From assembly GCA_046759445.1 (NCBI GenBank), contig JBHICG010000042.1, forward strand, positions 1 through 29,562: a stretch of 29,562 nucleotides of DNA. The letters run 5' to 3'. Under the pieces are notes generated by a model that was given only the letters and a program-made list of their open reading frames with translations, was not told the origin of the DNA and searched no databases. The position numbers and the translations under genes were made by a program. This DNA is from Candidatus Scalinduaceae bacterium (GTDB lineage: Bacteria; Planctomycetota; Brocadiia; Brocadiales; Scalinduaceae). Of the stretch, positions 16,825 through 29,375 are shown piece by piece (the first letter of the stretch is position 1; each line of letters starts with the position of its first letter).

Positions 16825-16891
16825 TTAGAAACTGTTCAGAGAATTTTTAAAGAAATCTTAGTTAAGATAAGATTTGTTTTTGAGCGAAAGT

Positions 16892-17626
16892 ATGTCTATA
16901 ATGATAAAGGGTTTTATTGAAAACAGTTTAATAGAGTGGGAAGGGAATATTGTCTCTATTATCTTTCTCCCACATTGTAATTTGAGATGTCCATATTGTC
17001 ATGCTACACATTTAGTTAGAAAGCCCAATGAGCTTGAAAGTATTCCATTGGAAGTAGTATCAGGAAGAGTAGAGCAAAATAAAGGTTGGTTAGATGGTGT
17101 TGTTATTACGGGTGGGGAACCGACGTTTCATGAAGATATAGATATGCTCATAAAAGTTTTCAAAGAGATGGGTTTAAGGGTCAGGGTAGATACAAATGGT
17201 ACGAATCCCAATAAACTGGAGGATTTGATACAAAGGGAATTAATCGATTGTGTAGCTATGGACATAAAGGCTCCTTTGAGGGAAGAAAAATATAGAATGG
17301 TTGCGGAAGCTCCGTGTAATGTATCTGATATTGAAGAAAGCATAAGGATTATAATGGAAAGTGGAATAGAATACGAATTTCGCACTACGGTTTGCCCTGC
17401 TTTTTTAGATGAATTGGATATTATTGAAATTGCTCAGAGCATAAGCGGGGCCAGGAAATATATTTTACAAACATTTAAACCGAATAATTGTTTGGATAGT
17501 AGTATGTTAGATGTCATACCATACTCAGAGGACAAAATTAAAGGTTTTGCAAAAAGGGCAAGGAGATTTGTGAAAGATTGTTATGTTAGAGGCGAGGAAA
17601 TGAAGGCCTTGAGCTGTAATTGGTGA
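16892..17626 (+). CDS. nrdG: Anaerobic RNR activating protein (radical SAM)
   Basis: CNLRCPYCH, GVVITGGEPT, DTNGT, MDIKAP and YEFRTT; follows nrdD. Start is probably ATG 16892 or 16901 rather than TTG 16874. Confidence 0.92.
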   Translation: MSIMIKGFIENSLIEWEGNIVSIIFLPHCNLRCPYCHATHLVRKPNELESIPLEVVSGRVEQNKGWLDGVVITGGEPTFHEDIDMLIKVFKEMGLRVRVDTNGTNPNKLEDLIQRELIDCVAMDIKAPLREEKYRMVAEAPCNVSDIEESIRIIMESGIEYEFRTTVCPAFLDELDIIEIAQSISGARKYILQTFKPNNCLDSSMLDVIPYSEDKIKGFAKRARRFVKDCYVRGEEMKALSCNW

Positions 17627-17674
17627 CTCTTCAAGATATTTTGGTCCTATTTGCCTGAAAGGGGGTGATATAAT

Positions 17675-17848
17675 ATGGCGGTGAAAAAGGCTTCTCGTAA
17701 GAAACCTGCAGCAAAGAAAAAAGCAACTAAGAAGAGTTCTTGTAAGACAAAAGCAAAGAAGAAAGTAGCAAAGAGGAAACCTGCAGCAAAGAAGAAAGTA
17801 GCAAAGAGAAAACCTGCAGCAAAGAAGAAGACTACAAGGAAAAGATAA
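17675..17848 (+). CDS. Small Lys/Ala-rich histone-H1-like protein (57 aa; not in the ORF track)
   Basis: Strong RBS GAAAGGGGGTGAT, then MAVKKASRKKPAAKKKATKKSSCKTKAKKKVAKRKPAAKKKVAKRKPAAKKKTTRKR*; 25 K and 5 R, no acidic residue, three KPAAKKK motifs. Confidence 0.85.
   Translation: MAVKKASRKKPAAKKKATKKSSCKTKAKKKVAKRKPAAKKKVAKRKPAAKKKTTRKR
17753..17829 (+). repeat. 33-bp coding tandem repeat (2.3 copies; unit AKKKVAKRKPA)
   Basis: GCAAAGAAGAAAGTAGCAAAGAG(G/A)AAACCTGCA twice, plus a partial third copy; the only difference between full copies is synonymous (AGG/AGA). Confidence 0.9.
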
Positions 17849-17994
17849 ATTCTGTTTAGGCCAATTATTAATAAGCTAAACAGGAAGGGAGTTAATTTTT
17901 AATCTTTTTGATATTACCAGCAAAAGGCTTTGAGAGTTTGTAGATGCACAGTTTAAGATTTACTTTTGGGACCAAATATCTTGAGAGAGTTAAT

Positions 17995-18028
17995 GGAGCG
18001 CCCCGATAATGGGACGCTCCTTTTTTTT
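17995..18028 (+). terminator. Intrinsic terminator
   Basis: GGAGCGCCCC-GATAAT-GGGACGCTCC hairpin (9 of 10 bp paired) followed by T8. Confidence 0.85.
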
Positions 18029-18047
18029 AAAAAGGGTTTGAGCAATC

Positions 18048-21000
18048 ATGCAGTTAAAAAAATTAGGATTATTTGGCTTTAAATCTTTCCCAGTTAAGAC
18101 GAGCTTCACTTTTGGGGATGGGATTACCATTATCGTAGGTTCTAATGGATGTGGTAAAAGTAATGTCGTCGACGCTATTAAATGGATACTTGGTGAACAG
18201 AGAGCAAAATCACTCAGGGGTAATGAAATGTCAGATGTGATATTTAATGGGACAAGCAAACGCCCCTCTATGGGATATGCGGAAGTTTCACTTACTATTT
18301 TGAATGATAAAAATATGCTACCGTTAGAGTATGAAGAAGTGTGTATTACCAGGCGTCTGTATACCTCAGGTGAATCAGAATACTTAATAAATAAACAACT
18401 TTGTCGCTTGAGAGATATTAAAGAACTTTTCATGGACACGGGGGTAGGGGCCAATTGTTATTCACTTATCGAACAAGGCAGGGTGGATACCTTGTTACAG
18501 GCAAATGCCCAAGAGAAACGTTTGGTCTTTGAGGAGGCAGCTGGTATCAGTAAATACAAAATTAAAAAAAGGGAAGCCATGTTAAAGTTGGAGAAGGTTG
18601 AACAGAATTTACTTCGCTTAAGTGATATAATCGAAGAGGTACAGAAGCAACTCCGTTCTGTAAAACTTCAAGCGGCAAAGGCTCGCAAATATAATGAGTC
18701 TGTAACCAGATTGAACGATTTAAGACTAAAGCTTTCCTTAAAGAAATATAGAATTTTTAAAGCTGAAAGAGCAGATGTTCTGGAACGTATGCAACAGATG
18801 GGTAATCAAAGTCAAGGGGTACTTTCTAAGATTGAAGAAATGGAGGCTAAAAGGGATAGTTTACGAAATTGTATAGATGAACTTGCTTCTAGCCTTGAAC
18901 AGTCCCAGCTTAATTTTTTAAATCTTGACGCAAAAATTACCAATGCAAATGATAGGATAGAATTTAACCATAAGACGACAGAGGAACTTAATACCCAAAA
19001 GGATAAATATGAGAGACAGATTAATATACTTAAAAATAAAATTAAAGAAGCAGAGGGTGAAATTTCTGATTTGACCCAGGGCTTAGAAGAAATACAGAAG
19101 GATCTATCGGATAAGGTTAATTGCTTATCATCAAAAGAAACGGAGTTAAAACAATATTTATTTGAATGTGATATCCTCCAGCAAAAGATAGATGAGAATA
19201 AAAAGAAGGTAATAGACATGCTTCAAAGGGGTGCTAACCTTCAAAATGAGATAGGCAGTTTGAGCGCAGAGAGGGATACTATTGGCAACAGAAAGACTAA
19301 GTTGTTAAGACGACAGGAAGAGATATCATCAGAATTAGGACGTTTAGAGTGTGAAAAACAAGAGCTCACAGAACAAAAGGATAAAACCATAAACGAAATT
19401 AAATCTCTTGAGGATTGTTTGTCCAGGATTAACGAAGAAATAAAGGCATTGAATGATGAAATTCGATCTGTTGGTAATAAAATAAATTTACAACAGCAGT
19501 TGCGAGGTCGGAAAGAATCGCGCCTGGAAATCCTGGAAGACCTTGAAAAGCGTTATGAGGGGGTGGGTTCAGGCGTGAGGGTGATTTTGGAAGAATCCAG
19601 AAAAAATAATGGATTGATAACGGGAATTTATGGAATGATTGCAGATCTGATTAAGGTAGATAGCGCCTATGTACCTGCTATAGAAGCAGTTTTGCGTGAT
19701 AAAGCGCAAATAATAGTTACTAAATCATTAAAAGAAGCAATTCAAGCAATTAACTTTTTAAAAAAGCATGAGAAAGGGCATGTCAGATTTCTTCCGTTGG
19801 AAGATATTAATACGAACAGGCCTGAGACGACTCTAGATTTAAGTATTCCGGGTGTTATAGGAAAAGCAGTTGATTTAGTAAAAAGCGAAGATTGCTTTAG
19901 TTTATTAATTGAGTATATCTTTATGGATACGATTGTAGTTAAAGATTTTGACACGGCATTGACGTTTGTTAATGATAGAAATGGACCTCACTGTATAGTA
20001 ACACTAGATGGGGAAGTGGTTGAGCCAGGTGGGACAATTTTTGTTGGTATGGGCGATATGCATGTCGGGCTTATTTCTCGGAAGACAGAACTTGAAAACA
20101 TTAAATTAGAGCTTGTAAAGATTGAAAAAGAAATTGAAGGGTATGTAAATGAAAAGAGGATTAAAACCGAGGAAGTTGAGAGCCTTAGTAAGGAATCGTA
20201 TGAGATTAAGAAGAAGATAGATGCAGAAAATACTCTTAGAGTCTCAAATGAAAATGATCTTCACAAGGAAGAGTTCAAAATTGTTGAACTTAATGAAGAA
20301 AAGAATATTAATGAAAGTGAGATTAATGAAATAGACGAGCACATCGAAAACATCGATCAAAGAGAAACGAAAATTATTGATGAGATAAAAATATTAAATG
20401 ATAAGCGAAATAATCTGGAAAATCAGGTTGTAGTTTCAGATAATGAGAGAATCCAAAAGGAAAACAGTAAAGTAGATGTTCAAAATGAAATAACAGAGTT
20501 AAAGGTTATTATAGCACAAAAGGAGGAAAGAAGAGATAATATCAATACTTCTAGAGAAAGATTAAAAGATGAATTCCAGAAAAACAAAGAGGAACTTACG
20601 TCCGTTCATAGCGAAATAAGCAATAGTAAAGAAAGGGTTGAAGAATGCGAAACAGAAATTTCAAGTTTAAATAAGTTATTAGAAGAACTTAAAAAAGAGA
20701 AAATCGACATGGAGAGAAATATCGAGACGTTAAAAGAAAAACAAAGCAACAATAATGAGCAGCTAAATGACGTTGATAAACACCTTGATGAATATAGAGA
20801 GGAATATAGGCGAGATGAGCAGAAGATAAATGATTTGAGGTTGAAGGAGAATGAATTTAAGATAAAGATTGAAGATTTAGAAGAGAGAATGCGCGAAGAT
20901 TATCATGTTGAGCTATCTGATCGAGATTTGGAGTGTAAAGGAGAAGATAGTGAATCTATTGATTGGGAGAATGTTTCTCAGGAGATTGATCTATTAAGGG

Positions 21001-21629
21001 GCAAGATAGAAAGAATGGGCAACGTCAATTTGGAAGCTATTCAGGAGCAGAAAGAACTTGAGGTGAGAGAGGCGCATCTTATGGAGCAAAAAGAGGATAT
21101 TCAAAAGTCAGAGAGAAGTTTGAAAGATATCGTAAAAAAGATAAATGTTACAAGTAGAGAATTATTTGAAAAAGCATTTCACGAAATAAGAAAGAATTTC
21201 CATGAATTGTTTCGTAAATTGTTTGGTGGCGGCAGGGCGGATATTATCTTAGAGGAAGGTGTTGATATTCTGGATGCGGGTATAGACATAATTGCTCAAC
21301 CTCCAGGGAAGGAACTTAAATCAATTACGCTTTTTTCGGGAGGTGAGAACGTTATGACAACGATCGCTCTATTGTTTGCCATATTTCAGTCTAAACCAAG
21401 TCCATTCTGTATACTTGATGAAGTTGATGCAGCCTTAGATGAAAACAACATTAATCGTTTTCTTCAGATACTTAAGGAATTTACAAAAATATCTCAATTT
21501 ATTATTATAACACACAATAAGCAGACTATAAGTATAGCCGATGTATTGTATGGGGTCACAATGGAGGAAGCAGGGGTATCAAAGAAGGTATCAGTAAAAT
21601 TTAAAGAAGAAGCAAGGCAGGTTGCATAA
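18048..21629 (+). CDS. smc: Chromosome segregation protein SMC
   Basis: GFKSF, Walker A GSNGCGKSN, SLRG..MSDVIF, IEQG, long coiled coils around a hinge (GHVRFLPL, VTLDGE), signature FSGGE, Walker B/D-loop LDEVDAALD, and ITH. Confidence 0.97.
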   Translation: MQLKKLGLFGFKSFPVKTSFTFGDGITIIVGSNGCGKSNVVDAIKWILGEQRAKSLRGNEMSDVIFNGTSKRPSMGYAEVSLTILNDKNMLPLEYEEVCITRRLYTSGESEYLINKQLCRLRDIKELFMDTGVGANCYSLIEQGRVDTLLQANAQEKRLVFEEAAGISKYKIKKREAMLKLEKVEQNLLRLSDIIEEVQKQLRSVKLQAAKARKYNESVTRLNDLRLKLSLKKYRIFKAERADVLERMQQMGNQSQGVLSKIEEMEAKRDSLRNCIDELASSLEQSQLNFLNLDAKITNANDRIEFNHKTTEELNTQKDKYERQINILKNKIKEAEGEISDLTQGLEEIQKDLSDKVNCLSSKETELKQYLFECDILQQKIDENKKKVIDMLQRGANLQNEIGSLSAERDTIGNRKTKLLRRQEEISSELGRLECEKQELTEQKDKTINEIKSLEDCLSRINEEIKALNDEIRSVGNKINLQQQLRGRKESRLEILEDLEKRYEGVGSGVRVILEESRKNNGLITGIYGMIADLIKVDSAYVPAIEAVLRDKAQIIVTKSLKEAIQAINFLKKHEKGHVRFLPLEDINTNRPETTLDLSIPGVIGKAVDLVKSEDCFSLLIEYIFMDTIVVKDFDTALTFVNDRNGPHCIVTLDGEVVEPGGTIFVGMGDMHVGLISRKTELENIKLELVKIEKEIEGYVNEKRIKTEEVESLSKESYEIKKKIDAENTLRVSNENDLHKEEFKIVELNEEKNINESEINEIDEHIENIDQRETKIIDEIKILNDKRNNLENQVVVSDNERIQKENSKVDVQNEITELKVIIAQKEERRDNINTSRERLKDEFQKNKEELTSVHSEISNSKERVEECETEISSLNKLLEELKKEKIDMERNIETLKEKQSNNNEQLNDVDKHLDEYREEYRRDEQKINDLRLKENEFKIKIEDLEERMREDYHVELSDRDLECKGEDSESIDWENVSQEIDLLRGKIERMGNVNLEAIQEQKELEVREAHLMEQKEDIQKSERSLKDIVKKINVTSRELFEKAFHEIRKNFHELFRKLFGGGRADIILEEGVDILDAGIDIIAQPPGKELKSITLFSGGENVMTTIALLFAIFQSKPSPFCILDEVDAALDENNINRFLQILKEFTKISQFIIITHNKQTISIADVLYGVTMEEAGVSKKVSVKFKEEARQVA

Positions 21630-28046: not shown

Positions 28047-29375
28047 ATGTTAAAGAAACTCCTGAAGATTAAATTACGGGTATTTTTCACTCCCTTTGCG
28101 TGTTTTCTCTTTTTGTGTAATTGTCTTTTTGCAGAATATAATGCTCACAAAATCGGGGACAAAAAAGAATTCTGGACATGGAATCTTAATGTAATGCCCC
28201 CGGAAAATGCCAAGCTACAAGCAACGTGCCGCGGTGTTGGAGAAAATGTATACGTTTTCGTCTCTGACGATGTATGGATGGTTAATGTCTTTCAAAAGGA
28301 TGTAGAAAGGATAATACAAACATTTGATCACGCTACTCCTGAAATATCAATAGATGGCGATAAAGGGATTTATGAAATTCTTACCGAGACATTTGGTAAG
28401 CCACCGGATGTAGATAATGACCCTAGAATATACTTCTTGATTTCTCAATTAGGTATGTATCATGGTCATCACTTTGACGGTTTCTTTCGCTTTATTGATG
28501 AGATTAAAGGCAAATATAGTAATCGTGCAGAAATATTGTACCTGGATTGTGACAACCCTTCTGATGACTATCATCTTGGAATCATCGCACACGAGTTCCA
28601 ACACCTGATCCACTGGCAATATGATCGTAATGAGGCATCATGGGTTAACGAGTCATTGTCAGAAGTTGCGATGATTCTTTGCGGATATTACACAGACAAG
28701 AAACAAGTTACCAGATATTTAAACAATACAGATAGTCCTTTAATATCGAAGGCTCATATGTCGAATTATGGGGCATGTCTTCTGTGGGGTACATATATAT
28801 ATGAACGTTTTGGAAGGACGTTTCTTAAAAATTTGGTGCTTGAAGAAGCTGATGGTATAGAGGGATTTAAAAGAGTTCTAACCAGTATGAATATTAAAGA
28901 TGATTTTTCAAAAATTTTTGGAGATTGGTTAGTTACGAACTATATAAACACTAACCTGCTTAGAAGTAAAGATTATAAATACAAATCTATAACACTTCCT
29001 ACTTTTCCTACTATTAAACACTTTTTCTCATTGCCGGCACATGATACCGGAAAAGTTTCTGGATATGCAGTAAATTATTTGAAGTTTAGTATAGAACGAG
29101 CAAGGAGTAAGAAACTAAGAATAACCTTTAGAAGTGATTCACCTAACGATTTTCTTATAAAGATCATTAAGATAGACAATGATGATTTGTCCAATTCTAA
29201 GGTAGAAGATGTTGTACTAAGTGCACCAATAGAGGTTTTTGATGTGACTGATGTGGGAGTGAATTATAGAGAAATAATATTGGTAGTATCAATATTGAAG
29301 ACGACAAAAGAACCTGTTTCATATAGTCTTTCGGCGTCTTTAATTCCATGTGTAGAAACAGCCTTGAGTCAATGA
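28047..29375 (+). CDS. Exported zinc metallopeptidase (gluzincin-type; M30/M6-like)
   Basis: Signal-peptide-like N-terminus; FGKPPDVDNDPRI, IAHEFQHLIH (HExxH) and downstream WVNESLSE with a third-ligand Glu. Confidence 0.8.
   Translation: MLKKLLKIKLRVFFTPFACFLFLCNCLFAEYNAHKIGDKKEFWTWNLNVMPPENAKLQATCRGVGENVYVFVSDDVWMVNVFQKDVERIIQTFDHATPEISIDGDKGIYEILTETFGKPPDVDNDPRIYFLISQLGMYHGHHFDGFFRFIDEIKGKYSNRAEILYLDCDNPSDDYHLGIIAHEFQHLIHWQYDRNEASWVNESLSEVAMILCGYYTDKKQVTRYLNNTDSPLISKAHMSNYGACLLWGTYIYERFGRTFLKNLVLEEADGIEGFKRVLTSMNIKDDFSKIFGDWLVTNYINTNLLRSKDYKYKSITLPTFPTIKHFFSLPAHDTGKVSGYAVNYLKFSIERARSKKLRITFRSDSPNDFLIKIIKIDNDDLSNSKVEDVVLSAPIEVFDVTDVGVNYREIILVVSILKTTKEPVSYSLSASLIPCVETALSQ

Follow-up and report, generated by a model that had tools for sequence, protein, structure and literature searches.

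The window analysed here is a 29,562-nucleotide (nt) stretch of DNA from a Candidatus Scalinduaceae bacterium of the order Brocadiales (assembly GCA_046759445.1, contig JBHICG010000042.1, positions 1 to 29,562), and our subject is its interval between nrdG and smc, where two complementary arms enclose a small lysine-rich open reading frame (ORF). The genes nrdR, nrdD, nrdG (a radical SAM protein), the Lys-rich ORF and smc follow one another on the + strand, the named genes being identified by Pfam. Within the module the order is nrdG stop, 5′ arm, strong Shine-Dalgarno (SD) sequence, ORF, 3′ untranslated region (UTR), 3′ arm, terminator and smc, with the following features:

16874-17626, + strand: nrdG, anaerobic ribonucleotide reductase activase (Pfam Radical_SAM and Fer4_12; ORF list)
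17624-17649, + strand: 5′ arm of the long-range helix (minimum free energy fold; complementary to the 3′ arm in relatives; RNAalifold)
17658-17669, + strand: extended SD AAAGGGGGTGAT, 5 nt before the ATG
17675-17848, + strand: ORF of 57 amino acids (aa) (ORF list)
17851-17884, + strand: local hairpin after the ORF stop (minimum free energy and centroid folds)
17909-17945, + strand: conserved 3′-UTR block, ATATTACC AGC AAAGGCTTT.AGAG..TGTA.ATGCA, or ATTACC.GCTAAAGGCTTTAAGAG.ATGTAAATGCA
17967-17992, + strand: 3′ arm of the long-range helix (minimum free energy fold, pair tables, RNAalifold), 2 nt before the terminator stem
17995-18028, + strand: intrinsic terminator, a 26-nt GC-rich hairpin (17995-18020) followed by T8 (18021-18028); -17.0 kcal/mol in an RNAfold scan
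18048-21629, + strand: smc (Pfam SMC_N and SMC_hinge)

In the minimum free energy (MFE) RNA fold of 17600-18030 the arms form a helix of 18 + 7 = 25 pairs (in the pair table, 23 Watson-Crick plus two G·U) with one unpaired base in each arm, which reproduces the 25-bp stem with one bulge per arm that an initial annotation of this DNA had described. The sequence also agrees with its statements that the helix begins at the nrdG TGA (17624-17626, bases 1-3 of the 5′ arm) and stops 2 nt short of a strong terminator, and the further hairpin that it placed in the loop at 17850-17885 is present in the fold at about 17851-17884. Most Scalinduaceae have a hairpin of other sequence at the same post-stop position, as read from the alignment. 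Neither arm extends into the ORF (in the window they lie 25 nt before its ATG and 119 nt after its stop), so that ribosomes can translate the mini-gene without opening the helix, which is separated from the SD by an A/U-rich linker (17650-17657). The 3′ arm abuts the terminator stem, so that the two helices can stack.

To place the module in a comparative frame, nrdG-to-smc intervals were collected by a search of relatives (37 of 41 genomes matched) and from a species-representative genome collection, in which the closest nrdG relatives are those of Candidatus Scalindua and other Scalinduaceae (≤81% identity), followed by Brocadia, Kuenenia, Loosdrechtia, Wunengus and unnamed Brocadiales; these affinities place the window in an anammox planctomycete. 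Dropping 10 duplicates gave 42 unique intervals, to which three cut by contig ends (L006, L009 and L024) were added; here L-numbers denote loci of relatives and G000 the window's own genome. Two were set aside, namely L024, which is cut short and without ORF, and L063, which has neither ORF nor arms, leaving 43 species.

The layout was found in these 43 species of Brocadiales. Comparison of their intervals supports the proposed RNA module in that most relatives keeping the ORF also keep the arms complementary, although arm sequences differ between families. In all families the start of the 5′ arm coincides with the stop codon of nrdG or lies ≤2 nt from it, and the 3′ arm ends 1-3 nt ahead of the terminator stem. 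The helix has 20-25 pairs in most Scalinduaceae, the window included, where it is nearly continuous; in Brocadiaceae it has 11 + 9 pairs with an asymmetric loop between them (3 nt versus about 8-14 nt). RNAalifold, run on 18 Scalinduaceae without an input structure, predicts both the long-range helix and the terminator de novo. When modelled transcripts (stop codon to T run) are folded, 33 of the 43 species have 10 or more long-range pairs in the MFE structure; of the ten that fall short, six come from a single genus-like group (L035, L040, L043, L046, L047 and L049), and as the duplex itself is good in that group, the chosen 3′ end may be at fault. At L063 (Candidatus Brocadiia bacterium JP1) nrdG adjoins smc and the terminator is present, with no Lys-rich ORF or arms; by this comparison the module would have been either gained in the anammox lineage or lost in L063.

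The pairing is stronger than expected by chance. A 32-nt 5′ segment of the window pairs with the 3′ UTR at -32.7 kcal/mol, compared with -17.1 ± 3.0 for shuffles, none of 40 being as good. The same cognate duplex averages -23.8 kcal/mol over the 43 species, and in 33 of them it is matched by 0 of 40 shuffles. As a genome-wide reference, 406 terminators were predicted in the window's genome with an RNAfold-based scan, and for the 385 that could be scored the 32 nt before the hairpin were paired with the sequence 50-800 nt further upstream. The locus ranks second of the 385 (-32.5 kcal/mol; genome mean -18.0, standard deviation 4.4), and among the top-ranking terminators it has the most continuous helix.

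For covariation, a first alignment held 18 Scalinduaceae and a second 24 Brocadiaceae and other Brocadiales. With the arms alone, 89.5% of cells in the second alignment are paired, and 16 cells in four pairs carry changes in both partners. Neither value is attained by any of 500 shuffles, the covariation score is attained by 10 of them, and shifting the partner by 1-3 columns lowers pairing to 30-49%. Three sequence versions of the outer helix exist, and within each the two strands are complementary:

Scalinduaceae: 5′ strand AACTCTTCGA, 3′ strand TTGAGAGAGTT
Brocadiaceae: 5′ strand TTTCATTATAC, 3′ strand GTATAATGAGAA
L062: 5′ strand CTTCTTACAA, 3′ strand TTGTAAGAAG

The inner helix alternates between GGTCCC/GGGACC, GGTCTC/GAGACC, GGTTCT/AGAACC and GGTTCC/GGAACC. 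When 5′ and 3′ segments are exchanged between groups, mean pairing falls to -17.7 kcal/mol (n = 900), well short of the cognate mean. The between-clade signal is stronger than the covariation within families.

The arms also carry the mark of selection on RNA. In a DNA inverted repeat, transitions should yield G·T and A·C mismatches about equally, so that an excess of G·U points to RNA; G·U cells outnumber A·C cells by 57 to 11 in the first alignment and by 40 to 10 in the second. When the best duplex is sought independently on each strand, the + strand gives the more stable one in 40 of 43 species (equal in L055, weaker in L059 and L062), with means of -23.8 and -18.3 kcal/mol; the species are related, so that the Wilcoxon p-value of this test overstates, but the direction is consistent. 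The earlier suggestion that selection acts on the + strand RNA rather than on DNA repeats is supported by both signals. A mobile element with terminal inverted repeats, such as a miniature inverted-repeat transposable element (MITE), can be rejected: searching the arms and the whole element with blastn-short against the 145-contig assembly (3.62 Mb) returned no second copy, so that the MITE reading, which the initial annotation had proposed to check by such a search, fails its defining test, and the position is fixed across the order. Strand bias, G·U excess, fixed position and single copy together suggest that selection acts on a + strand transcript spanning the two arms, and we regard the helix as very probably a selected RNA structure, neither a MITE nor the product of chance.

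The SD of the mini-gene is exceptionally long. AAAGGGGGTGAT has the potential for 11-12 base pairs with GGATCACCTCCTT, the 3′ end of 16S rRNA, which was read at the 3′ end of the 16S match in L115, of the same family, the rRNA end of G000 itself not being assembled; this 3′-end motif is single-copy in four relatives. The form GG(A/G)GGTGAT is found in 40 of 43 species, and the other three (L014, L016 and L017, all Scalinduaceae) read GGAGGGCA. The 9-mer occurs 51 times in the window's genome, and the ORF-linked sites of the full AAAGG(A/G)GGTGAT include two cold-shock protein genes besides the Lys-rich ORF. The cold-shock genes (G000 C8:50046 and C41:3346) share the extended SD A(A/G)AGGGGGTGAT. 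An SD in common with cold-shock genes is consistent with, and no proof of, membership in a highly expressed class.

The product of the window ORF consists of 53% lysine and arginine (K+R), with no acidic residues and no hydrophobic stretch. Orthologues are ATG-started in all 43 species, with 22-120 aa, 31-73% K+R and again no hydrophobic stretch; an M-x-x-K-K start and a KKCG(T/S) motif are common to most of them, and their length differences are in-frame repeat expansions. The initial annotation called this a histone-like mini-gene. The part of that description that stands is the conserved, very basic ORF in 43 species; the affiliation is less secure, given that the window copy scores 16.2 bits against Pfam PF07382 (HC2), under the 40-bit gathering cut-off. 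Among seven orthologues scanned only L018 passes (50.4 bits), L013 reaches 37.3 bits, the short Brocadia forms (27-34 aa) have no HC2 score, and none of seven proteins scanned reaches an NCBIfam cut-off. Because the HC2 matches are largely compositional, 'histone H1-like' states a composition and not a demonstrated homology or function. A homologue search among proteins of 31-100 aa gave no hit at E ≤ 0.001, probably owing to composition correction, and the ESM Atlas returned only unnamed small Lys-rich clusters; neither result informs on the range of the family. Encoded beside smc, the unannotated mini-protein is a candidate nucleoid component of anammox bacteria.

Other Lys-rich genes were seen in these genomes. 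Paralogous (PAAKKK)n genes of 23 to >98 aa with the same strong SD occur in another Scalinduaceae genus (L101-L105, L107 and L109-L111; genomes G016, G017, G014, G015, G013, G008, G023, G019 and G022). L111 has no downstream sequence; in the other eight loci the genes lie about 35 nt upstream of a 66-aa ORF with a CPKC (CxxC) motif, which in L101, the only one scanned, has a sub-threshold glutaredoxin match (16.9 versus 22.9 bits). The paralogues have the SD in common with the mini-gene, and the idea that they also share the nrdG-smc arms was rejected, as the arms are absent. No (PAAKKK)n paralogue was found in the window's own genome, where the only other Hc2-like stretch belongs to a 138-aa protein encoded on the minus strand of contig C41 (about 28100-28660), whose N-terminal part resembles a coiled coil and whose C-terminal tail is Lys-rich (KKAATTKKASAKKTVAKKPTAKKPAAKKKTAKK).

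The terminator is conserved along with the helix: 97.8% of its stem cells are paired in the 18 Scalinduaceae, with compensatory changes, and five pairs show double changes in the second alignment. A consensus terminator scan called none in this stretch, and the same scan calls the orthologous hairpin in L065. The smc ATG lies 19 nt past the T run, which leaves no space for a promoter between them, and transcription of smc may therefore depend on terminator read-through or start at a promoter that shares sequence with the 3′ arm and terminator. One promoter-like sequence, TTGAGA-18-GATAAT (17981-18010), does overlap the 3′ arm and the terminator loop; it is a weak match, in a window scan that gave 7 promoter-like matches where 5.3 are expected by chance. 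An antiterminator, in which the 3′ arm would compete with the 3′ half of the terminator (both contain TGGGAC in the window), was rejected, as on reading the sequences the resemblance is not kept in other genera. Between terminator and smc, variable insertions are seen in L035, L040, L043 and L049, and also in L007, L012, L013, L046, L047 and L059. In one group they include a GC-rich palindromic element of the CCCCTCACCC...GGGTGAGGG type, and that of L059 apparently holds two small ORFs; none of these insertions affects the module, which lies upstream of the terminator.

At the other end of the module, synonymous-codon identity in 16 Scalinduaceae peaks in the last 10 codons of nrdG (17595-17626), the top of 24 ten-codon windows (0.87 versus a mean of 0.71), and it is also raised there in 24 other Brocadiales (0.75 versus 0.66). 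This raised identity suggests an overlapping nucleotide-level element at the nrdG 3′ end, perhaps a promoter or more RNA structure. A promoter read there by hand (TTGAGC or TTTACA with a weak -10) was not confirmed by the promoter scan.

The reading that we favour, with about even confidence and by analogy with the hbs mRNA of Bacillus subtilis, is that the helix mainly stabilises and protects the mRNA, as an hbs-type closure of a heavily translated message. One cis-acting architecture would then serve across the Brocadiales, in which the 20-25-bp helix closes the mini-gene transcript and ribosomes translate the loop while the helix stays shut. Closure would shield the 5′ end and the A/U-rich linker from 5′-end-dependent and single-strand endonucleases, the terminator would block 3′ exonucleases, and a 30S subunit held on the 11-12-bp SD would cover the stretch that remains exposed. 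The combined outcome, we infer, would be a long-lived, highly translated message for an abundant polycation that probably binds the nucleoid. The window's genome (97% completeness) encodes RNase Y, an RNase E/G-type enzyme and RNase III; RNase J was not found in it.

Several observations weigh against this reading. The fold energy of the whole 431-nt region (17600-18030) is ordinary (z = -0.11, not significant), and helix-specific tests were used instead. In L045, L048 and L061 the helix is no better than shuffles, and in L059, L016, L017, L035, L013, L014 and L020 it is marginal (1-10 shuffles as good); L045 and L048 have lost the GGT(T/C)C core from the 5′ arm and retain GAACC in the 3′ arm. 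Covariation within each family is modest and consists chiefly of wobble changes. Sequence conservation prevails in the Scalinduaceae arms, with 91.9% of cells paired and only two pairs altered in both partners; their percentage paired is reached by 5 of 500 shuffles and their covariation score by 24 of 500, and the whole-structure covariation count is weaker than the arms-only count; as related sequences can beat shuffles without any structure, the covariation figures of both alignments are support and not proof. Upstream of the ORF, the promoter scan gave no consensus match in the window (+ strand, from 16800), in L036 or in L065, and a transcription start inside the 5′ arm would leave only the inner helix. 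The RNA evidence consists of assembled contigs from one metatranscriptome study (three runs, one of them without a matching contig), which cover 17411-17618, 17596-17860 and 17971-18205 at full identity, carry no information on ends, strand or level, and may derive from DNA. Finally, the protein is Lys-rich and Hc2-like, not HU, which makes the parallel with hbs a functional and not a homologous one.

Among the alternatives, the helix could be an RNase III stem: formed on an nrdRDG read-through transcript, it would be cut on both strands and free a mini-mRNA protected by its paired ends, which would separate the fate of this mRNA from that of the nrd message. The window helix with its 25 nearly continuous pairs, the encoded RNase III, the 5′ arm that starts at the nrdG stop and the lack of a consensus + strand promoter between 16800 and the ORF all fit, as does the RNA-library contig 17596-17860, which bridges the nrdG end, the 5′ arm and the ORF (although it may derive from DNA and does not establish a single transcript). 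However, the 11 + 9 pairs of Brocadiaceae with their asymmetric loop would make a poor two-turn substrate, yet the layout is equally conserved there. We consider RNase III processing rather unlikely as the main role of the helix, and it is compatible with stabilisation as an added step.

A translational lock of the kind seen in hok fold-back inhibition (fbi) or in icaR would act through the 3′-UTR block, whose columns (17909-17945) are near-invariant in the 18 Scalinduaceae. Closure of the helix would set this anti-SD block onto the SD bases GGTGATAT, and the mRNA would be silent until processed or remodelled, limiting a protein that would be harmful in excess. The bases ATATTACC (17911-17918) could pair with GGTGATAT in 83% of cells, compared with 65% in the next-best register, and one register also stands out in the second alignment (80% versus 71%); the helix and the block both appear in the MFE and centroid folds of the window. 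Pairing of a 3′ UTR with an SD is reported for icaR in the accessible text of PMC3868564. Nevertheless, the candidate pairing is just 6-8 bp and wobble-rich and is not in the RNAalifold consensus, which favours a local hairpin for the block; L014, L016 and L017 have altered SD-flanking bases without compensation in the ATATTACC partner; the main helix does not touch the SD; and what the ORF encodes is not one of the hydrophobic type I toxins. The lock therefore seems improbable to us. A further candidate, a GCCT/AGGC helix, was rejected with just 68% of cells paired, and Brocadiaceae carry a different conserved 3′-UTR block, TAATG(A/G)TTA.TGTATAAAG.

Similarly low is our confidence that the 3′ arm and terminator (about 17967-18028, ~62 nt) are made or released as a small RNA (sRNA) whose single-stranded 5′ part pairs with the nrdG stop and 5′ UTR in trans or cis. 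Typical 3′-UTR-derived sRNAs have a seed, a hairpin and a U tail, a shape that the 3′ arm and terminator resemble. A promoter-like TTGAGA-18-TAAGAT (17930-17959) is placed so that transcripts from it would begin at roughly base 1 of the 3′ arm, and the 3′ UTR of Brocadia L036 contains TTTACT-16-TATAAT, which matches at 10 of 12 positions. Such matches are nonetheless at chance level, in the window as in L036 (2 versus 2.6 expected), with none in L065. No Rfam family matches either: over 17500-18150 the best E is 0.16, with none at its gathering score, and a scan of the whole window matched a tRNA alone (RF00005, 1274-1359, 55.6 bits).

It is also doubtful, though conceivable, that the helix works as a switch sensed by ribosomes finishing nrdG. 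Because the nrdG stop codon heads the 5′ arm in every family, a ribosome that stops there on an nrdRDG read-through transcript would each time open the outer helix and leave the inner helix and the stacked terminator in place. If true, this would tie the lifetime or translation of the polycation message to nrdG translation and, via the shared terminator and promoter region, to smc, and would be an anammox-specific cis-RNA link from deoxynucleotide (dNTP) supply to chromosome compaction. The coupling of dNTP supply and nucleoid compaction that the initial annotation also raised is speculation from conserved gene order only. The sub-threshold glutaredoxin match beside the (PAAKKK)n paralogues is one curious parallel to it.

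Least probable is a relic at the DNA level, either decayed terminal inverted repeats of an old insertion that carried the mini-gene in between nrdG and smc or complementary protein-binding or promoter sequences: L063, without ORF or arms, would allow an insertion in the anammox ancestor and promoter-like hexamers do overlap the 3′ arm, but there are no other genomic copies, the position is fixed, complementarity is kept despite sequence divergence, and there are the G·U excess and the + strand preference, all of them unexpected for unselected DNA repeats.

The pairing has a comparative backing that spans a whole order of slow dividers, where mRNA longevity should matter. Anammox organisms divide very slowly, and pure cultures of them cannot be grown. 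At ~400 nt, the compact cassette is a possible mRNA-stabilising part.

To our knowledge, validated 5′/3′-UTR pairings in bacterial mRNAs are few, namely hbs, icaR and the hok family. In the literature searched, which left most subscription journals uncovered, we found no description of this element or of a Lys-rich or Hc2-like anammox protein. The statement in the initial annotation that no described system has this layout is not right, given that B. subtilis hbs has it and icaR is another 5′/3′-UTR pairing, as far as the accessible parts of PMC5737220 and PMC3868564 go.

In the icaR mRNA of Staphylococcus aureus, 5′/3′-UTR pairing covers the SD, represses translation and is cut by RNase III (PMC3868564, accessible text). 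Unlike this, the main helix here lies about 9 nt upstream of the SD, and the separate anti-SD pairing is a weak candidate. In hok/sok-type mRNAs the 5′ and 3′ ends (fbi) of a ~400-nt mRNA pair around a ~50-aa ORF. The module resembles them in the paired ends of a ~400-nt mRNA that enclose a small ORF; it differs in that the product is a soluble polycation (31-73% K+R) and not a hydrophobic membrane peptide, in being chromosomal and fixed across an order, and in that no antisense RNA gene or overlapping leader ORF is seen at the locus. The likeness to chlamydial Hc1 and Hc2 is one of protein, both being Lys/Ala-rich, repetitive and basic, with L018 over the HC2 cut-off. Chlamydiae and Planctomycetota belong to the same superphylum, PVC (Planctomycetota, Verrucomicrobiota and Chlamydiae), and chlamydial hctA is regulated in trans by the sRNA IhtA, not by 5′/3′ closure.

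The closest parallel is hbs, which encodes the histone-like HBsu. According to the accessible text of PMC5737220 (Braun, Durand and Condon 2017), a 14-bp interaction joins the 5′ UTR of its mRNA to the 3′ UTR just upstream of the terminator, the SD is exceptionally strong (about 12 bp with 16S rRNA), compensatory mutants show that the two segments pair in vivo and that this restricts RNase Y cleavage beside the SD, and ribosome occupancy protects the mRNA. The module shares with hbs a monocistronic-sized message for a small, basic, histone-like nucleoid protein (its abundance and nucleoid role here being our assumption), a 5′-UTR segment upstream of the SD that is complementary to a segment just before an intrinsic terminator, and a very long SD. 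It differs in the length of the helix, 20-25 bp instead of 14, and in its 5′ arm, which begins at the stop of the upstream gene, whereas that of hbs follows 5′ hairpins of a mapped primary transcript. The host is a member of the Planctomycetota, and a search of its genome did not detect RNase J1, the enzyme at the centre of the hbs model. The hbs pairing was established by mutants, the one described here is supported by sequence comparison. End-to-end pairing at a terminator combined with a very long SD would thus be found in a second, unrelated histone-like gene after hbs, which suggests, by analogy, a common plan by which mRNAs for abundant nucleoid proteins are made both long-lived and productive.

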